A stretch of DNA of 63,405 nt from Bacillota bacterium (GTDB taxonomy: Bacteria; Bacillota; DTU065). The translations under genes and the position numbers were made by a program. Shown one piece after another: positions 15,368 through 41,745 of this stretch (position 1 is its first letter; the number at the start of each line of letters is the position of its first letter). The notes beneath the pieces are model-generated. The model made no database searches and was not told the origin of the DNA. It was given only the letters and a program-made list of their open reading frames with translations. The stretch is taken from NCBI GenBank assembly GCA_028708605.1, contig JAQVYS010000004.1:1-63405 (forward strand). The letters run 5' to 3'.

Positions 15368-15727
15368 TGGTGGAGGCGGTGGGTGTCGAACCCACGTCCG
15401 AAAAGACGACCATAGTCCCGTCTACGAGCGTAGTCTGATTACTTAGTTTTCGCTTGAAAGAACGCCATCAGACAGGCTTCTTTCTCACTACACTTCTATA
15501 GTCTTTCGTTTTCGCCTAGAAGTAATGGCTAAACGGCAACCCGCTAATTTGATGCCCAAAAGATAGCCGCAGGTTTACTATCTAAGGACAGCTACTTTTA
15601 ATTAAGCAGCGTAAGCTAAATTATCGTTTGCGTTTATTATACGCTTCCGCCTTTTTATCGAGGTTTGCGGAGAACTCGGCTCGCTGTGACTAACATCATA
15701 ACTCCCCGTCGAAGCCAAATCGCCCCC
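15368..15727 (-). ncRNA. ssrA: tmRNA (SsrA)
   Basis: Minus strand starts GGGGGCGATTTGGCTTCGACGGGG and ends GGACGTGGGTTCGACACCCACCGCCTCCACCA. The acceptor stem GGGGGCG/CGCCTCC has G3:U. Tag ORF GCA AAC GAT AAT TTA GCT TAC GCT GCT TAA encodes ANDNLAYAA* (15631..15602). Confidence 0.95.
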
Positions 15728-33382: not shown

Positions 33383-34232
33383 CGTCTGTTTCTTTTAGTA
33401 ATGACTTTATATCCGCTATCTTGAAGTAGTTTACCCACCCCATAATATAACGTCTGAGTCTCAGTATTCTCTCTTTATTGCTCATTCCGTTACTCCTAAA
33501 AGTAAGGTCCTTGATTTTGCTTCTCATTTTAGCAGTTGATTTAGGATGTATCCTAACTCGTGTTGCACCTTTTCTCTTGAGCAATTGCTTGTTGCACTAC
33601 TCTGTCTACCACTGTAGGTATTCCTAACTTCCTCTTTTTCCCGTTTTCTTTGGGTATCTCTGTCCGTCTAACAGGATTAGGTTTCTACTTACCGTTCAAA
33701 ATACTTTCTTTAATACTTTTAAGATTCTTTTCGAGATACTTTCTGAGTTCATCGACTCCCATTCCGTCTACGCCTGGTGCTCCTTTGTTGGATTTCACCT
33801 TATGGAAGGCTTGATTGAAATTCTGGATGTCTATGACTTTCTCAAGTAGGTTCTCGGTTAGCCCCTCCTCGATTAACTCGAGTACTATGGCACCTGCTGA
33901 CTTCTCATGGCAAATCTTGTTTCAACCGTAGCTCGAAATATATCTCCTCGCGTCCATGAGACCTCCCATGGTAAGACGATTCACTTTCACCCCATGTACC
34001 CACATCATCTACATTCGTATGTCCGTGTAGTTAATTGGACTTCGTTTTGTTTAGCAAACTCATCCCATATCCACTGCCTAATGATGTTCGTGTTCCTTGG
34101 GTCAGGGTTTTACCTCCAACTTCCTTCAGATTCCACCTCGCAATAATCACCCTTGCTCTTGGCTAATGGTTGGTAACTACAAACCCCCATAGTGGACTTT
34201 CACCACCTAGTTAATCGACATGCATGGCGCAC
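33383..34232 (-). mobile_element. group II intron, 5' segment (5' GUGCGCC end, domains I-IV, decayed RT ORF)
   Basis: Minus strand begins GTGCGCCATGCATG at 34232. The RT ORF reads ...NFNQAFHKVKSNKGAPGVDGM...ILNGK*KPNPVRRTEIPKENGKKRKLGIPTVVDRVVQQAIAQ, then jumps directly to ...RVRIHPKSTAKMRSKIKDLTFRSNG...GWVNYFKIADIKSLLKETDE. So there is an in-frame TAG and no YADD palm region. Confidence 0.8.
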
Positions 34233-37915: not shown

Positions 37916-38779
37916 TTAAAATAGTGATAACTGTTTAGACTGAACTTCAGTCCAATACGGTGCTTCGCACCTCATCCCTTGTTCTCTAGCAAGGGTCTCT
38001 ATCATTTCGTTTATTGGCTGCCAATAAGAATCTGGCACAATGCCTTCTCTTCCATACAAAAACCGATAAGGTTGGACTAGCTCCCTGTAATTGGTTTCCA
38101 AAAATGCCAAAAATGCCCTTTCGTGTTTGCTGGCAATACTTAGTGGCGCTTTTAAGATATAACTTGCACCTGATTCTTTTGCAGCTATAATTATCTGTTT
38201 AATACCTTTTTGGTCATCCCCTATAAATGGCAATATCGGGTTAAGAGCAACCCCACAGGTTACGCCTTTTGAGGCAAGGTTATGTAGGGCATTGAAACGC
38301 TTTATCGGAGAAGGTACATTTGGTTCTAGCTGCTTTGCTAGACTAATAAAAGGCGAGCAAAACTCGAACGTAACTGAAGCCATCGTTTTACTGGCTATCT
38401 CTTGTAAGATTTTCTTGTCTCTTAATACTAGAGTACTGCGTGTTTTGATATGTACTGGAAAGCCCTGAACAGCTAAGACCTGCAACAGATCGTGAGTTAT
38501 CAAATAATGCTTTTCCAAGGGCATGTAAGGATCACATTTATAACCGATACCAACTGTCTCTCGAGATTTTTTAACTAATTGCCTTGAAAGCACCTCAGCT
38601 GCATTCAAGCGTACTTGCACAGTCTGAGTTTCTAACTCAATAGGGTTAGCACAATAGGTACACTGCTGAGAGCAGCCAAGATATGGATCAGCAACATATC
38701 TGTAACCAAACACCGGGTCTCTATTGCGGTAAATATCTAGGATGGATTTAACTTTTTGTTCTTTTGTAGCAATACTCAT
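37916..38779 (-). CDS. SPL-family (COG1533, 'DNA repair photolyase'-like) radical SAM protein
   Basis: 287 aa with the CxxxCxxC cluster in YLGCSQQCTYCAN. Size and layout fit SplB-like proteins. Confidence 0.65.
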   Translation of the reverse strand: MSIATKEQKVKSILDIYRNRDPVFGYRYVADPYLGCSQQCTYCANPIELETQTVQVRLNAAEVLSRQLVKKSRETVGIGYKCDPYMPLEKHYLITHDLLQVLAVQGFPVHIKTRSTLVLRDKKILQEIASKTMASVTFEFCSPFISLAKQLEPNVPSPIKRFNALHNLASKGVTCGVALNPILPFIGDDQKGIKQIIIAAKESGASYILKAPLSIASKHERAFLAFLETNYRELVQPYRFLYGREGIVPDSYWQPINEMIETLAREQGMRCEAPYWTEVQSKQLSLF

Positions 38780-38892
38780 TAAAAAATCCTCCTGTCTACC
38801 GCAAAAAATAACTTTTTAATCCGTCTCTGTAAAGTATATCTTAACATAGTCTAGATAAATATTAAAGAAACGACCTATAAAACTGCTCCGTG

Positions 38893-38921
38893 AAAAAAAG
38901 CTGCAGGCATACCTGCAGCTT
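38893..38921 (-). terminator. strong intrinsic terminator closing the riboswitch leader
   Basis: Minus strand reads AGCTGCAGG-tatg-CCTGCAGCT plus TTTTTT, 114 nt upstream of the radical SAM ATG. Confidence 0.85.
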
Positions 38922-38947
38922 AAATCCGAATCCTCGTGATTATGATA

Positions 38948-39048
38948 AGCCTACTCCACCCCCCTGTTTCTCCCCCGTAAGATAGAGCGGAGAAACCTCA
39001 TGGTCTGATCTCTTATAGTTTCATGCCGGGTTGGCAGACCCGTAGGCT
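38948..39048 (-). promoter_or_regulatory. unassigned ~100-nt structured leader domain (possible second aptamer)
   Basis: Closing helix AGCCTAC/GTAGGCT (39048-39042 / 38954-38948). Internal helices are GGTCTG/CAGACC (39040-35 / 39007-02) and GTTTCTCC/GGAGAAAC (38996-89 / 38973-66). A G6 run lies at 38964-59. No plausible ORF. Confidence 0.45.
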
Positions 39049-39084
39049 ATAAGTTGGGTAGATGAACAGACTTAGAGTGCCGCT

Positions 39085-39154
39085 CCCTCATAGTCAGATA
39101 GTTAACGGCTATCTGGTAGATACTCTCATGCCATATTCCTGAGATTATACGAGG
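39085..39154 (-). promoter_or_regulatory. purine riboswitch aptamer, guanine class
   Basis: Minus strand reads CCTCGTATAATCTCAGGAATATGGCATGAGAGTATCTACCAGATAGCCGTTAACTATCTGACTATGAGG. P1 is CCTCGTA/TATGAGG. The conserved UAUAAU, AUAUGG, UCUACC and CCGUUAA elements are present. J3/1 is GACUAUG (C at the specificity position, hence guanine-type). Confidence 0.9.
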
Positions 39155-39178
39155 AAATCTCATAACCACTTTACGTTT

Positions 39179-39207
39179 ATTCTACCCTTAAATATCATTA
39201 CTGTCAA
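39179..39207 (-). promoter_or_regulatory. sigma70-type promoter for the riboswitch transcript
   Basis: Minus strand reads TTGACA (39207-39202), a 17-nt spacer, then TAGAAT (39184-39179). It overlaps the last codons and stop of the upstream ttcA-like gene. Confidence 0.65.
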
Positions 39208-39976
39208 TATTACCTAAATACTTTAGATAGAACTGATGCATCTCTAGCTTGTTTTTTTGTTTAGGCCATAGTTCAACTTTTTTTCCTTCGCGCATTGCGG
39301 ACAAAAGATGCGTATAAACATTAGGGTTATCTTTAACAAGATCTTTTAAAAGATTTTTCACCTGTTCTCTTTGAGTTTTGCCTGAATATGGACAAGGATT
39401 TTTTACTGGTTCAGCTTCAGCGTATGTTAAACCACCTTTTACCTCTGCCTCTGTAAAATAAACTAGTGGCCTAATTACTCTGATAGCACTTTTGTCTAAG
39501 TAGGTTGTGGGCATAAAAGTTTTTAACTGACCAGAATAAAAGAGGCTAAGCAAAAATGTCTCAAGCGCATCATCTTGGTGATGAGCAAAAGCAAGAACAT
39601 TTGCTTCTTCTCGTTTTAATATTCTGATCAAAGCCCCTTTTCTATAAAAAGCGCAACTACTACAGGGATTATTAGGCGATCTTTCTTTTACAACCTCAGC
39701 GATATTTGTTCTTTCTAAATAAAACGGTACAGATAGCTTCTTGCAATAATTCCTTAAATAATCTTCTCTAATCTGACCATATCCTAAGTCAATTGTTGCA
39801 GCAGCAAGTTCAAAAGAAAAGGGCGAGTTATTTTGCATTACCCGTAAGGCGTACAATAAAAACAGACTGTCTTTGCCACCTGAAAGACCAACTACTACTT
39901 TATCATTTTCTTTTAACATTTCAAACTCCATTGCTGCTCGCCAAAGTTTGCGTAGATATAACTTCGGAAGTCTCAT
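39188..39976 (-). CDS. PP-loop ATPase, TtcA-like tRNA 2-thiocytidine biosynthesis protein
   Basis: Start at ATG 39976 (RBS AGAGGTG). VGLSGGKDS PP-loop plus the CSSCAFYRKG cysteine motif. Confidence 0.75.
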   Translation of the reverse strand: MRLPKLYLRKLWRAAMEFEMLKENDKVVVGLSGGKDSLFLLYALRVMQNNSPFSFELAAATIDLGYGQIREDYLRNYCKKLSVPFYLERTNIAEVVKERSPNNPCSSCAFYRKGALIRILKREEANVLAFAHHQDDALETFLLSLFYSGQLKTFMPTTYLDKSAIRVIRPLVYFTEAEVKGGLTYAEAEPVKNPCPYSGKTQREQVKNLLKDLVKDNPNVYTHLLSAMREGKKVELWPKQKNKLEMHQFYLKYLGNIDSNDI

Positions 39977-40126
39977 TATTGCACCTCTACCATAGTTAGG
40001 ATAAAGATATTTTATCTCAAATACTAGCAAAAGCAACCCAAAAAATTAGTGGCACCTCTAATAGTAGGTACCACTATACACATATTAAATATTGAAATTT
40101 AAGATTAAGCTCTTTTCAGTTATAGA

Positions 40127-40288
40127 TTACTCTTCTTTCTCAAAGTCTTCTTTACTTGCTCCGCAGAGGGGACATACCCAATCATCTGGAAGATCCTCGA
40201 ATTTTACTCCAGGCTCAATACCACCTTCTGGATCGCCAACTGCTGGATCATAAACCCATCCACATAAAGTGCAAACCCACTTATCCAT
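40127..40288 (-). CDS. rubredoxin (53 aa; below the ORF-track cutoff)
   Basis: GGAGG plus 7 nt, then [53 protein letters not shown]. Two CxxCG knuckles. Confidence 0.9.
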
Positions 40289-40461
40289 ATGATTTCCTCC
40301 TTCACTTTTCTTAAAATGTTCACTTCTTTTTACCTATACCACTTAAATGCGAAAATAAACCAATTTATTAGGAAATTGTCTTCTAGCAGCTTGATTTTTG
40401 GAAATCCCGATAACCAATGGTTATCAAAAAGACTCCCCCCAAATTTGGAGGGAGTAAAAAT

Positions 40462-41745
40462 TTACAGTCTAGAAACAAACCGTTCAAATTCTTTTTGTTT
40501 TCTAGTGAGTTCTAAGTTAGAATCTCGAGCTGCTTCTAATAGAACTGTCTTTGGATCTGCATCTTGCATTACTACCTTAGAAAAAGCAAAGCTAAGGTAT
40601 CGATAGGTCTGGTATCCACCTACGACAGGCATAGGTCCAAGTGACTCTGAGAGCGCACCATCAATAACTGTTCTAACATTTTCTGGGAAAATTTCGGAAT
40701 TTGCTGTGCCCCTTGTACCAAAGACTAGATACCATTCTTCAGGTGAATCATAGATCCTAGTCTGGAACTCTTTTTGCACACGATCTGAAGCAATCCATTT
40801 GACGAACTCCCAAGATGCCTTAACCTTCTCTTCATTATTGTTGTTTGGCATCGCAAAAGCAAATGAACCAAGAGGAACCGTGCGATCTAGATTACCATCT
40901 TTATCGATAGTTCCAGGTGCTTGAGTTACTGTCCACTTGCCCTGTAGTTGCGGTTGCGTTCTGGTGATCTGAGCATATATCCAGTTCAAGGTTACCATAT
41001 AAGGAGTGTCTCCACTCATAAACGCCTGGACTTCAGGTAGTTCTAGTGGCAAGCGTTGCTCAGTATAAAAAGAGGTGAAGTTGAGAAAAGCATCTAAAGC
41101 TTCAGGTGAATCCAGATTAGAACTTAAGCCGTCTGCAGTAAAGATATCTGAGCCTCTTTGGTAAATAAATGGAAAGAATGATCGTACATGACCATCTGTA
41201 TTATTACCTATGGTAGAAAGCCATGGATCTTTACCTTGTGCTTGGATTTTAGGTATAATCGCTCTAAATTCATCCCAAGTATCAGGAGGACTGATACCAA
41301 GATCATTAAATATGTCAATCCGATAAAAAGCTTGCGTCCAACCTAATTCAAAAGGTATACCATAAACATGGTCCTTAAAAGTTAAAGCTCTCATCGCCCC
41401 TGGATAGATGTCTTTAATAGCATCATCATAGTCTGAGAATTGACTTATATCAGTAATTGCTCCGCGAATTGCCATATCGATAACCTGCGCTGCACCTAAG
41501 GTCATTACATCAGGAGCATCACCAGTGGCCAAAGCCAACAGTGCTTTTTGAAAGAAAGCTCCGTCAACCATATACGGCTGGTAATTTACTTCAATCCCAG
41601 TTGCTGGAGTGAAGTCATTTTCAATAAGGTCCTGCAAAATAGCTCCCATTACACCTCCATAAGTTATCCATGCAGTAATTTCAACTGCACTGCCAATTAC
41701 ACTTAGTAACAGAATTATTGCTAACAATAAAGCAGTTTTACGCAA
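40462..41745 (-). CDS. ABC transporter solute-binding protein, family 1, orphan (SBP-D)
   Basis: 427 aa with signal peptide LLLSVIGSA/VE. C-terminal ELTRKQKEFERFVSRL motif. No permease nearby. Confidence 0.8.
   Translation of the reverse strand: MRKTALLLAIILLLSVIGSAVEITAWITYGGVMGAILQDLIENDFTPATGIEVNYQPYMVDGAFFQKALLALATGDAPDVMTLGAAQVIDMAIRGAITDISQFSDYDDAIKDIYPGAMRALTFKDHVYGIPFELGWTQAFYRIDIFNDLGISPPDTWDEFRAIIPKIQAQGKDPWLSTIGNNTDGHVRSFFPFIYQRGSDIFTADGLSSNLDSPEALDAFLNFTSFYTEQRLPLELPEVQAFMSGDTPYMVTLNWIYAQITRTQPQLQGKWTVTQAPGTIDKDGNLDRTVPLGSFAFAMPNNNNEEKVKASWEFVKWIASDRVQKEFQTRIYDSPEEWYLVFGTRGTANSEIFPENVRTVIDGALSESLGPMPVVGGYQTYRYLSFAFSKVVMQDADPKTVLLEAARDSNLELTRKQKEFERFVSRL

Follow-up and report, generated by a model that had tools for sequence, protein, structure and literature searches.

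The locus analysed here lies on a contig of 63,405 nucleotides (nt) from a Bacillota bacterium (JAQVYS010000004.1, assembly GCA_028708605.1; the whole stretch, positions 1 to 63,405, is called the window below). On its minus strand a guanine riboswitch aptamer is followed by an intrinsic terminator, and the question raised by this locus is what the segment between the two does. A first-pass annotation of the window had placed a closed multi-helix RNA domain of ~100 nt there (38948-39048), which it took for a possible second aptamer in tandem with the first or for an elaborate expression platform. Comparison of related loci indicates that a real and conserved RNA domain, clade-specific and not described before, has this segment as its core; we refer to the domain as domain 2. 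Our best explanation, which taken as a whole we hold to have an even chance of being correct, is that the aptamer and domain 2 form a single RNA of ~280 nt, running from a promoter inside the end of the upstream ttcA-like gene to the intrinsic terminator, and that domain 2 would act as a guanine-gated conformational module, coupled to the aptamer via strand exchange. The elements at the centre of the argument are the following.

39071-39172, minus strand: guanine-I (purine) aptamer, Rfam family RF00167, with its P1 strands at 39147-39156 and 39084-39093
38955-39072, minus strand: domain 2, candidate three-helix fold P1'-P2/P2a-P3, 116 bits with covariance model R1
38893-38921, minus strand: intrinsic terminator, AAGCUGCAGG-UAUG-CCUGCAGCUU followed by U7, in which CUGCAGG/CCUGCAG is invariant and one flanking pair is compensated

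By its sequence, the aptamer is of the canonical guanine-I type. It matches model positions 1-102 of RF00167 with 81.3 bits, against a gathering score of 37 (the aptamer of the related locus L001 scores 78.7 bits), its specificity position in J3/1 is a C (GACUAU) and its J2/3 is undeleted, with 9 nt (GUAUCUACC). A C at the J3/1 specificity position together with an undeleted J2/3, in which U47 is present, denotes guanine and not adenine or 8-oxoguanine as the ligand (PMC10556655).

Homologues of domain 2 were gathered via neighbouring proteins and DNA patterns, which gave eight sequence-distinct versions, namely those of the window, L285, L217, L001, L219 (with a near-identical variant, L221), L220, L222 and L225; an additional copy, L263, is cut at a contig end and scores 77.6 bits with model R1. 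All copies come from digester and fermentation metagenomes and belong to a single clade of uncultured Bacillota/Clostridia, and in all versions domain 2 lies directly 3' of the guanine aptamer and the ttcA-like gene. Model R1 scores 105-143 bits in nine full-length copies, the window included, and 22 bits or less in 100 unrelated loci preselected for a common 16-mer, and over the whole domain 2 model 96.4% of the cells are paired, compared with 43-61% in controls in which the partners were slid. The mean pairwise identity is 0.88 for the aptamer, 0.74 for domain 2, 0.43 for the spacer before the terminator and 0.38 for the sequence after the terminator. The 101-nt segment itself folds at -37.7 kcal/mol (z = -2.3), and 2 of 200 shuffles folded equally well. 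Shuffles and comparison agree with the first-pass description, in which the spacer was non-random and non-coding and formed a multi-helix RNA domain in tandem with the guanine aptamer, and the sequences quoted in that description were all found in place on the minus strand; the conserved domain, of ~118 nt, extends over 38955-39072 and not 38948-39048. The RNA strand has no open reading frame (ORF) inside the segment, where the first-pass annotation had seen none longer than 16 codons. Two mechanically called ORFs merely overlap the area, one of 40 amino acids across the aptamer (39047-39169, minus strand) and one of 31 amino acids with a GTG start on the opposite strand, across the terminator and the domain (38890-38985, plus strand), and both are almost certainly spurious, because the RNA elements that they overlap conserve structure and not coding sequence.

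Database searches placed domain 2 in no described family and in no other setting. No Rfam match to domain 2 was found at E <= 10 in the regions scanned (window 38760-39260, L001 1205-1400 and L225 4160-4372), and none of these three lineages gave a second RF00167 match at that threshold, as a duplicated aptamer would. A PrrB/RsmZ match of 17 bits in L001, absent in L225 and in the window, was treated as noise. The true matches in GTDB genomes and JGI metagenomes, from scans that required exact 20-base patterns, all follow a purine aptamer; two loose DNA pattern scans of the GTDB genomes returned almost solely chance matches, and a tighter pattern returned the same clade only. A viral scan and blastn against plasmids and phages gave no genuine domain 2 match. 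Neither the aptamer nor domain 2 accompanies the ttcA homologues at 63% and 50% identity (L349, L350) or the homologues, in other contexts (L302, L304, L305, L307), of a substrate-binding protein (SBP) that is encoded downstream in most of the related loci. No report of the arrangement was found in a survey of tandem riboswitches (PMC9481103) or in the literature searched. An inverted duplication of the RNA in L255 (1-180; DUTE01000407.1), with its axis in the P3 loop, is most likely a contig-end assembly artefact.

The alignment of the eight versions suggests a fold for domain 2 that differs in part from the one first drawn, and its parts are listed below.

39056-39066, minus strand: P1' 5' strand, UUCAUCUACCC, pyrimidine-rich, pairing with 38955-38964 (95.5% of cells paired)
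38955-38964, minus strand: P1' 3' strand, GGGGGGUGGA, G-rich; GGGAGGUGG in other lineages, Shine-Dalgarno-like
39012-39053, minus strand: helix P2, CUUAUAG (39047-39053) with CUAUAAG (39012-39018), enclosing an internal loop and P2a
39027-39042, minus strand: hairpin P2a, CGGG-UCUGCCAA-CCCG, invariant in all versions
38966-38996, minus strand: hairpin P3, GUUUCUCC-G-CUC with GGG-GGAGAAAC, 94.8% paired, -10 to -14 kcal/mol
38948-38954, minus strand: GUAGGCU, 3' arm of AGCCUAC/GUAGGCU, specific to the window lineage

Helix P2 is 97.5% paired and shows compensatory double changes in four of its eight pairs (A-U/G-C and C-G/U-A), with the alleles CUUAUAG/CUAUAAG in the window and CUUGCAG/CUGCAAG or CUUACAG/CUGUAAG in other lineages. 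In P1', YYCAYCUACCC pairs with GGGRGGUGGR, with one-sided (Y-G) changes only, and the helix is mutually exclusive with a GUCUG:CAGAC pairing. An alternative register of P1', CUACC/GGUGG, was rejected, as it leaves C·A mismatches in four versions, while YYCAYCU/RGGUGGR fits 55 of 56 pairs. The 5' strand of P3, GUUUCUCC, is nearly invariant (one C-to-U change, in L225) and the 3' strand varies, bulges included, with pairing preserved; the 8-bp hairpin GUUUCUCC/GGAGAAAC of the first-pass annotation is this helix, and its pairing holds across versions. The G run, which the first-pass annotation suggested could pair with CCC in earlier loops, is part of GGGRGGUGGR, for which YYCAYCUACCC, just upstream of where the segment had been taken to begin, is a possible partner. 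The proposed closing helix AGCCUAC/GUAGGCU (39042-39048 with 38948-38954) forms seven of seven pairs in the window and its near-identical relative L285 and one to three of seven in the six other versions; it is perfect in the window lineage only and therefore not a conserved closure. Likewise GGUCUG/CAGACC, the other enclosing helix of that drawing, carries an uncompensated A·A mismatch in three of the eight versions and competes with better-supported helices. The small hairpin drawn inside it, GCC-AACCC-GGC, corresponds to a hairpin that is in fact invariant, ACGGG-NCUGCCAA-CCCGG; thermodynamics favour CGGG/CCCG closing the loop NCUGCCAA, and covariation cannot decide the pairing. Together with the A and G that flank it, this hairpin, P2a, makes up an 18-nt block, ACGGGNCUGCCAACCCGG, in which 17 bases are invariant and only N varies.

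Three further observations concern these helices. A kink-turn in the internal loop between P2 and P2a was considered and rejected, the GA/AG pattern being inconsistent across lineages by eye, and so was a small ORF after the GGAGGUG tract, whose AUG is present in L219 and L220 only. The invariant loop word CUGCC (39031-39038, minus strand) is complementary to a linker word GCRG(C) (39076-39082), which reads GGCAG in L219 and GCGG or GCAG elsewhere, and a tertiary pairing of loop and linker is possible, with just 4-5 bp and a mismatch in L225; CUGCC also matches GCAG words in both terminator arms.

The evidence for coupling between the aptamer and domain 2 comes from an alternative helix, H_alt, which joins the following strands.

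39067-39091, minus strand: H_alt 5' strand, AUGAGGGAGCGGCACUCUAAGUCUG, made up of the P1 3' strand, the linker and invariant GUCUG; finds its best partner in the transcript in the strand below
38984-39007, minus strand: H_alt 3' strand, CAGACCAUGAGGUUUCUCCGCUCU, made up of invariant CAGAC (39003-39007), J2/3 and the P3 5' strand

When the alignment from the end of the aptamer to the terminator was folded with RNAalifold, the three-helix fold was not returned, and GAGGGAGCRGC was paired with GUUUCUCC.CUC and GUCUG with CAGAC. In every lineage the resulting helix (AUGAGGG…GUCUG with CAGAC…GUUUCUCC.CUC) comprises 18-22 bp, with -22 to -27 kcal/mol and z = -2.7 to -6.1 against dinucleotide shuffles, and is the best partnership anywhere in the transcript. 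Its middle parts vary in sequence and register, with C-G in L001 and U-A in L225, and its formation is incompatible with that of aptamer P1, of P3 and of P1'. The conservation of the linker, of GUCUG and of CAGAC, together with the near-invariance of the P3 5' strand, is explained by H_alt, while the three-helix fold leaves it unexplained; such a contrast between a nearly invariant 5' strand and a variable 3' strand is compatible with two partners for the former. When H_alt is forced in the complete RNA, the energy rises by 0-8 kcal/mol over that of the minimum. With the transcript truncated directly behind the P3 5' strand, when this strand has just emerged, H_alt is the minimum free energy (MFE) structure in four of seven lineages and lies 2.1-3.3 kcal/mol from the P1 fold in the other three. 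At this point, the helix that competes with P1 for its 3' strand is about as stable as the P1 fold (within +/-5 kcal/mol), and such a near-degeneracy of H_alt and P1 as the competing strand emerges is, in these models, what would be expected at the decision point of a riboswitch.

A second long-range helix, P0, ties the ends of the RNA together, and is formed by two strands that flank the aptamer and domain 2.

39160-39169, minus strand: P0 5' strand, GUGGUUAUGA in the window, at a distance of 1-3 nt from the predicted transcript 5' end
38936-38945, minus strand: P0 3' strand, UCAUAAUCAC in the window, 9 nt past domain 2, with the terminator core another 17 nt on

Every lineage is predicted to form P0, whose duplex has -10 to -17.6 kcal/mol (z = -3.6 to -5.0 relative to shuffles) and compensatory changes at 3-4 positions: the 5' and 3' strands read GUAGUUAUGG and UCAUAACUAC in L217, and GUGACUAC and GUAGUCGC in most other lineages. 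Across lineages the 3' strand lies 7-9 nt after domain 2. Since P0 pairs the 5' end of the transcript with a segment past domain 2, it encloses the aptamer and the domain together.

The proposed mechanism links these helices. With guanine bound, P1 would be locked, domain 2 would adopt the P1'/P2/P3 fold and P0 would close off the RNA as a whole. If guanine is absent, the linker and the P1 3' strand would invade, and H_alt could form once the P3 5' strand has been transcribed; its formation would block P3 and P1', free a purine-rich strand of ~30 nt (GGAGG…GGGAGGUGG) and put the C-rich 5' strand of P1' into a loop. As the terminator is predicted to form in either state and would take no part in this strand exchange, the output of the switch would be the conformation of domain 2 and not classical antitermination. 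The shape of domain 2 could then be read by a second small ligand, by a protein, or by an RNA target in cis or in trans. In the models, the P2a block is needed for neither fold and is accounted for by no switching helix; an invariant block that is dispensable for both folds points to a specific partner, whether small ligand, protein or RNA.

The place of the terminator in this scheme follows from a search for its antiterminator. In the window, 33 nt separate the terminator from the end of domain 2, with P0 between, and in the full RNA its pairing probability is 1.00 in all three modelled conditions. No conserved upstream partner was found for the terminator 5' half (CUGCAGG), the best partner differing by lineage; in MFE folds cut before the terminator 3' half, the 5' half is unpaired or inconsistently paired, with or without the P1 5' strand blocked, and it is unpaired in the consensus fold of the truncated alignment. 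Three candidate antiterminators were rejected. Pairing with the P2 5' strand is strong in L219, L220 and L222 only and is weakened in the window by changes that are compensated inside P2; pairing of the aptamer P1 5' strand with the pre-terminator purine tract is good only in the window, L217 and L001, this tract instead extending the terminator stem against the U-tract; and the P0 5' strand opposes the terminator in L001-type sequences only. The segment is therefore not simply the antiterminator of 38893-38921, for which no conserved pairing was found, and the models give domain 2 no visible control over the terminator, such as a two-aptamer gate with a shared terminator would require. Of the roles suggested at first, that of an elaborate expression platform is nearer to the evidence, in that an 18-22 bp helix with the P1 3' strand was found, although the terminator is not visibly controlled.

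Several points weigh against a guanine-gated module. H_alt is populated at equilibrium in L217 only (0.90), and the aptamer-closed fold dominates in the other six lineages, in calculations with no ligand term; as equilibrium favours the closed fold, the modelled switch rests on co-transcriptional kinetics. On the alignment, P1' and P3 are without double compensatory changes, and P1' is a candidate closure of domain 2, because with longer alignments RNAalifold favours an extended P3 and a hairpin in the linker rather than P1'. The low-complexity purine and pyrimidine strands inflate cross-complementarity, for which dinucleotide shuffles control partly, and the ~6-7 independent lineages are closely related, so that the conservation of complementarity does not amount to many independent observations. 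An unregulated terminator is unusual in a riboswitch, and there may be a route to antitermination that is invisible to secondary-structure models. Finally, the model leaves the 17-base invariant P2a block unexplained, which hints at a specific binding partner.

A tentative alternative is that the aptamer, the domain and the terminator make up a stand-alone guanine-sensing regulatory RNA, in which the aptamer would allosterically refold an effector domain, by exchange of P1/P3 for the ~20-bp helix, and the target would be something other than its own terminator. The effector might act on a protein, on an mRNA in trans, or through a second metabolite bound by the ACGGG-NCUGCCAA-CCCGG hairpin and the junction. 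Read from the sequence in a similarly tentative way, the unit could be a stand-alone small RNA, or a 3'-end element shared with the ttcA operon, that is a guanine-controlled effector in trans, acting by base pairing through its C-rich or GGAGG-rich strands, or by protein binding. The elements that bear on this alternative flank the RNA.

39188-40036, minus strand: ttcA-like PP-loop gene, 5' of the aptamer
39179-39207, minus strand: promoter TTGACA-17 nt-TAGAAT, with 11 of 12 consensus positions, overlapping the stop codon of the ttcA-like gene
37916-38779, minus strand: radical SAM gene (rSAM) of the Rv2578c/PA0069 'DNA repair photolyase' type, ~115 nt past the terminator

The order on the minus strand of the window is the ttcA-like gene, the purine aptamer, domain 2, the intrinsic terminator, a spacer of ~115 nt and the rSAM gene. 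The promoter is kept as TTGACA-17-TAnAAT in all eight versions, and its position at 39207-39179 predicts a transcription start at ~39170-39172. Its strong conservation and its overlap with the ttcA stop codon favour a transcript of its own, as do the strong terminator, for which no antiterminator was detected, and the sequestration of the 5' end in P0, as in many stable RNAs. The promoter and the intrinsic terminator accompany the RNA regardless of which gene lies downstream, and it is linked throughout to ttcA and not to any single downstream gene. In five lineages, the RNA is followed by a gene for an orphan SBP of the ATP-binding cassette (ABC) type (SBP2), a terminator and then the rSAM gene; in the window and L217 lineages, SBP2 has been lost, whereas the RNA has stayed whole, and its P0 and P2 carry compensatory changes specific to the lineage. 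What follows the terminator in the window can be aligned to the sequence between SBP2 and rSAM in the other lineages, including a TGTTAAGAT box and GGTAGACAGGAG before the start codon, so that a conserved upstream region belongs to the rSAM gene itself; both elements are kept before rSAM in all lineages, including those with a terminator after the SBP gene. SBP homologues elsewhere do without the RNA, yet keep their own conserved 5' box. Against a stand-alone RNA, the stretch from the terminator to SBP2 yielded no sigma-70-like promoter in either L001 or L219, so that the SBP gene may depend on read-through and the RNA may have a role in cis. A literature search found no guanine-aptamer small RNA with such logic, and we know of none.

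Some traces of neighbouring elements were also noted. The window retains, at 38838-38892 (minus strand), a remnant of the 3' half of the SBP2 terminator (GUCGUUUCUUUAAU; compare L001 2862-3006). All SBP2 homologues, with or without the riboswitch, share GAAGGAAUnnAUU-N7-CUGUCUAA ~60-110 nt before the start codon (L001 1455-1500; L302 2860-2900; L304 2555-2595; L307 about 1-60), which is not sigma-70-promoter-like and may be an operator or an element of the 5' untranslated region. Synteny is conserved upstream of the RNA, where rubredoxin is preceded by a paralogous SBP gene and followed by ttcA (window 40127-41745, minus strand). In most relatives the rubredoxin and ttcA genes also have a flavodiiron (FprA-like) gene between them, which the window and L217 are without.

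We consider it unlikely that domain 2 is an independent second aptamer for another small ligand, which together with guanine would form a two-input gate on the shared terminator. The conservation of domain 2 comes near to that of the guanine aptamer, and its 17-base invariant hairpin block, its invariant CAGAC junction and its multi-helix fold with possible pseudoknots resemble an aptamer core; no switching helix accounts for P2a, and guanine-phosphoribosyl pyrophosphate (PRPP) tandems provide a precedent (PMC5912903; PMC9481103). The absence of an Rfam family match in the three scanned lineages speaks against it, however, as does the terminator, which does not overlap domain 2 but is set apart by P0 and 30-45 nt with no conserved pairing. 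The two domains are separated here by ~20 nt, compared with 5-7 nt between the P1 stems of guanine-PRPP tandems (PMC5912903), a singlet domain was never found in pattern scans, which were narrow, and much of domain 2 is complementary to the P1 strand of the guanine aptamer itself.

By analogy with the cyclic di-GMP-II/group I arrangement, domain 2 could be a catalytic RNA, a self-cleaving ribozyme or some other, that guanine controls allosterically; we regard this as very improbable. Invariant nucleotides in the loop and the junction and a possible pseudoknot topology would suit it, and CUGCCAA, CCCGG and GGAGGGG, which are similar to words of the Oryza twister, served as a lead only. That lead was rejected, as the order of the shared words misfits the twister helices and the CCGGG for a twister-like P4 is missing in the window, L217 and L225, and no match to twister, twister-sister, pistol, hatchet, hammerhead or hepatitis delta virus (HDV) ribozymes was found at E <= 10 in the three scanned lineages. 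The lead given by the first-pass annotation, a divergent ykkC-family aptamer for PRPP, guanosine tetraphosphate (ppGpp) or guanidine (guanidine-I), is effectively refuted. It came solely from a likeness of short words (CUACGGGUCUG... against CUAGGGUUCCGG...), and no ykkC-type match was found at E <= 10 in the window, L001 or L225. The word CUACGGG includes a position that is not conserved (where the window has AGCCUAC, other lineages have AGUAUAC or AGUUUAC), the helices are laid out differently, and neither the spacing nor the terminator overlap is that of guanine-PRPP tandems.

Two other structured RNAs were found elsewhere in the window, namely domains D1-D4 of a group II intron (33861-34147, minus strand; RF02001 with 121 bits, RF01998 with 38 bits) and a tmRNA gene (15368-15727, minus strand; RF00023, 183 bits).

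Guanine riboswitches are among the best understood RNA switches, and their known outputs are control of a terminator or of a ribosome-binding site. Like the classical guanine riboswitch of the xpt-pbuX type (RF00167), the present RNA has a canonical aptamer, a competitor of similar stability for the P1 3' strand, and a terminator that follows. Unlike in the classical type, the competitor lies inside a conserved domain of 118 nt and not in the terminator 5' half, no antiterminator is detectable, ~160 nt separate the P1 3' strand from the terminator, and the invariant hairpin and P0 are without counterpart. The only tandem partner of guanine riboswitches known to us is PRPP. In guanine-PRPP tandems, the P1 stems of the two aptamers lie 5-7 nt apart and the terminator overlaps the second (PRPP) aptamer (PMC5912903). 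The likeness to this arrangement (ykkC subtype 2b) is that a guanine aptamer and a second structured domain share a single terminator, with none intervening, and that the two domains appear structurally coupled. The differences are that the second domain here has no ykkC match in sequence or structure, that the gap is ~20 nt and not 5-7 nt, that the terminator is clear of the second domain, that P0 encloses both domains, that the coupling would operate via an 18-22 bp alternative helix using the guanine P1 3' strand, and that the associated genes (an orphan SBP, an rSAM protein and ttcA upstream) are not those of purine biosynthesis.

Two more distant comparisons are instructive. In SreA/SreB, which derive from S-adenosylmethionine (SAM) riboswitches, and in EutX/Rli55, which are controlled by adenosylcobalamin (AdoCbl), the ligand sets the length of the transcript via a terminator between aptamer and effector. 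As in these RNAs, the aptamer lies within a discrete non-coding transcript whose downstream part could act on other molecules; here, there is no terminator between the parts, and the ligand would alter the fold of the effector. In the tandem glycine riboswitch, two homologous aptamers are tied together by an extra helix, in which the 5' leader pairs with the linker between them (the P0 or leader-linker helix). Two domains are likewise tied by a helix from the 5' leader in the present RNA, although they are unrelated to each other and P0 joins the 5' end to sequence past the second domain.

The interest of the RNA is limited by its narrow distribution, in one clade of uncultured digester Bacillota, and at ~280 nt it is small enough for direct in vitro tests. 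Because the ykkC match, the tandem spacing, the terminator overlap and an antiterminator are all lacking, the RNA is a member of neither the guanine-PRPP tandems nor the ordinary guanine riboswitches beyond its aptamer; it looks most like the former and works most like the latter. What sets it apart is that a canonical guanine aptamer is hard-wired to a conserved 118-nt domain within a long-range enclosing helix, with no detectable antiterminator, and that the RNA has been retained after the loss of a neighbouring gene. A stand-alone effector, if that alternative were true, would be a new architecture for riboswitch output. If the proposed coupling is true, domain 2 would be either a new partner aptamer with two-input logic, or a new kind of output in which guanine remodels an effector domain, and either would widen the range of riboswitch architectures.

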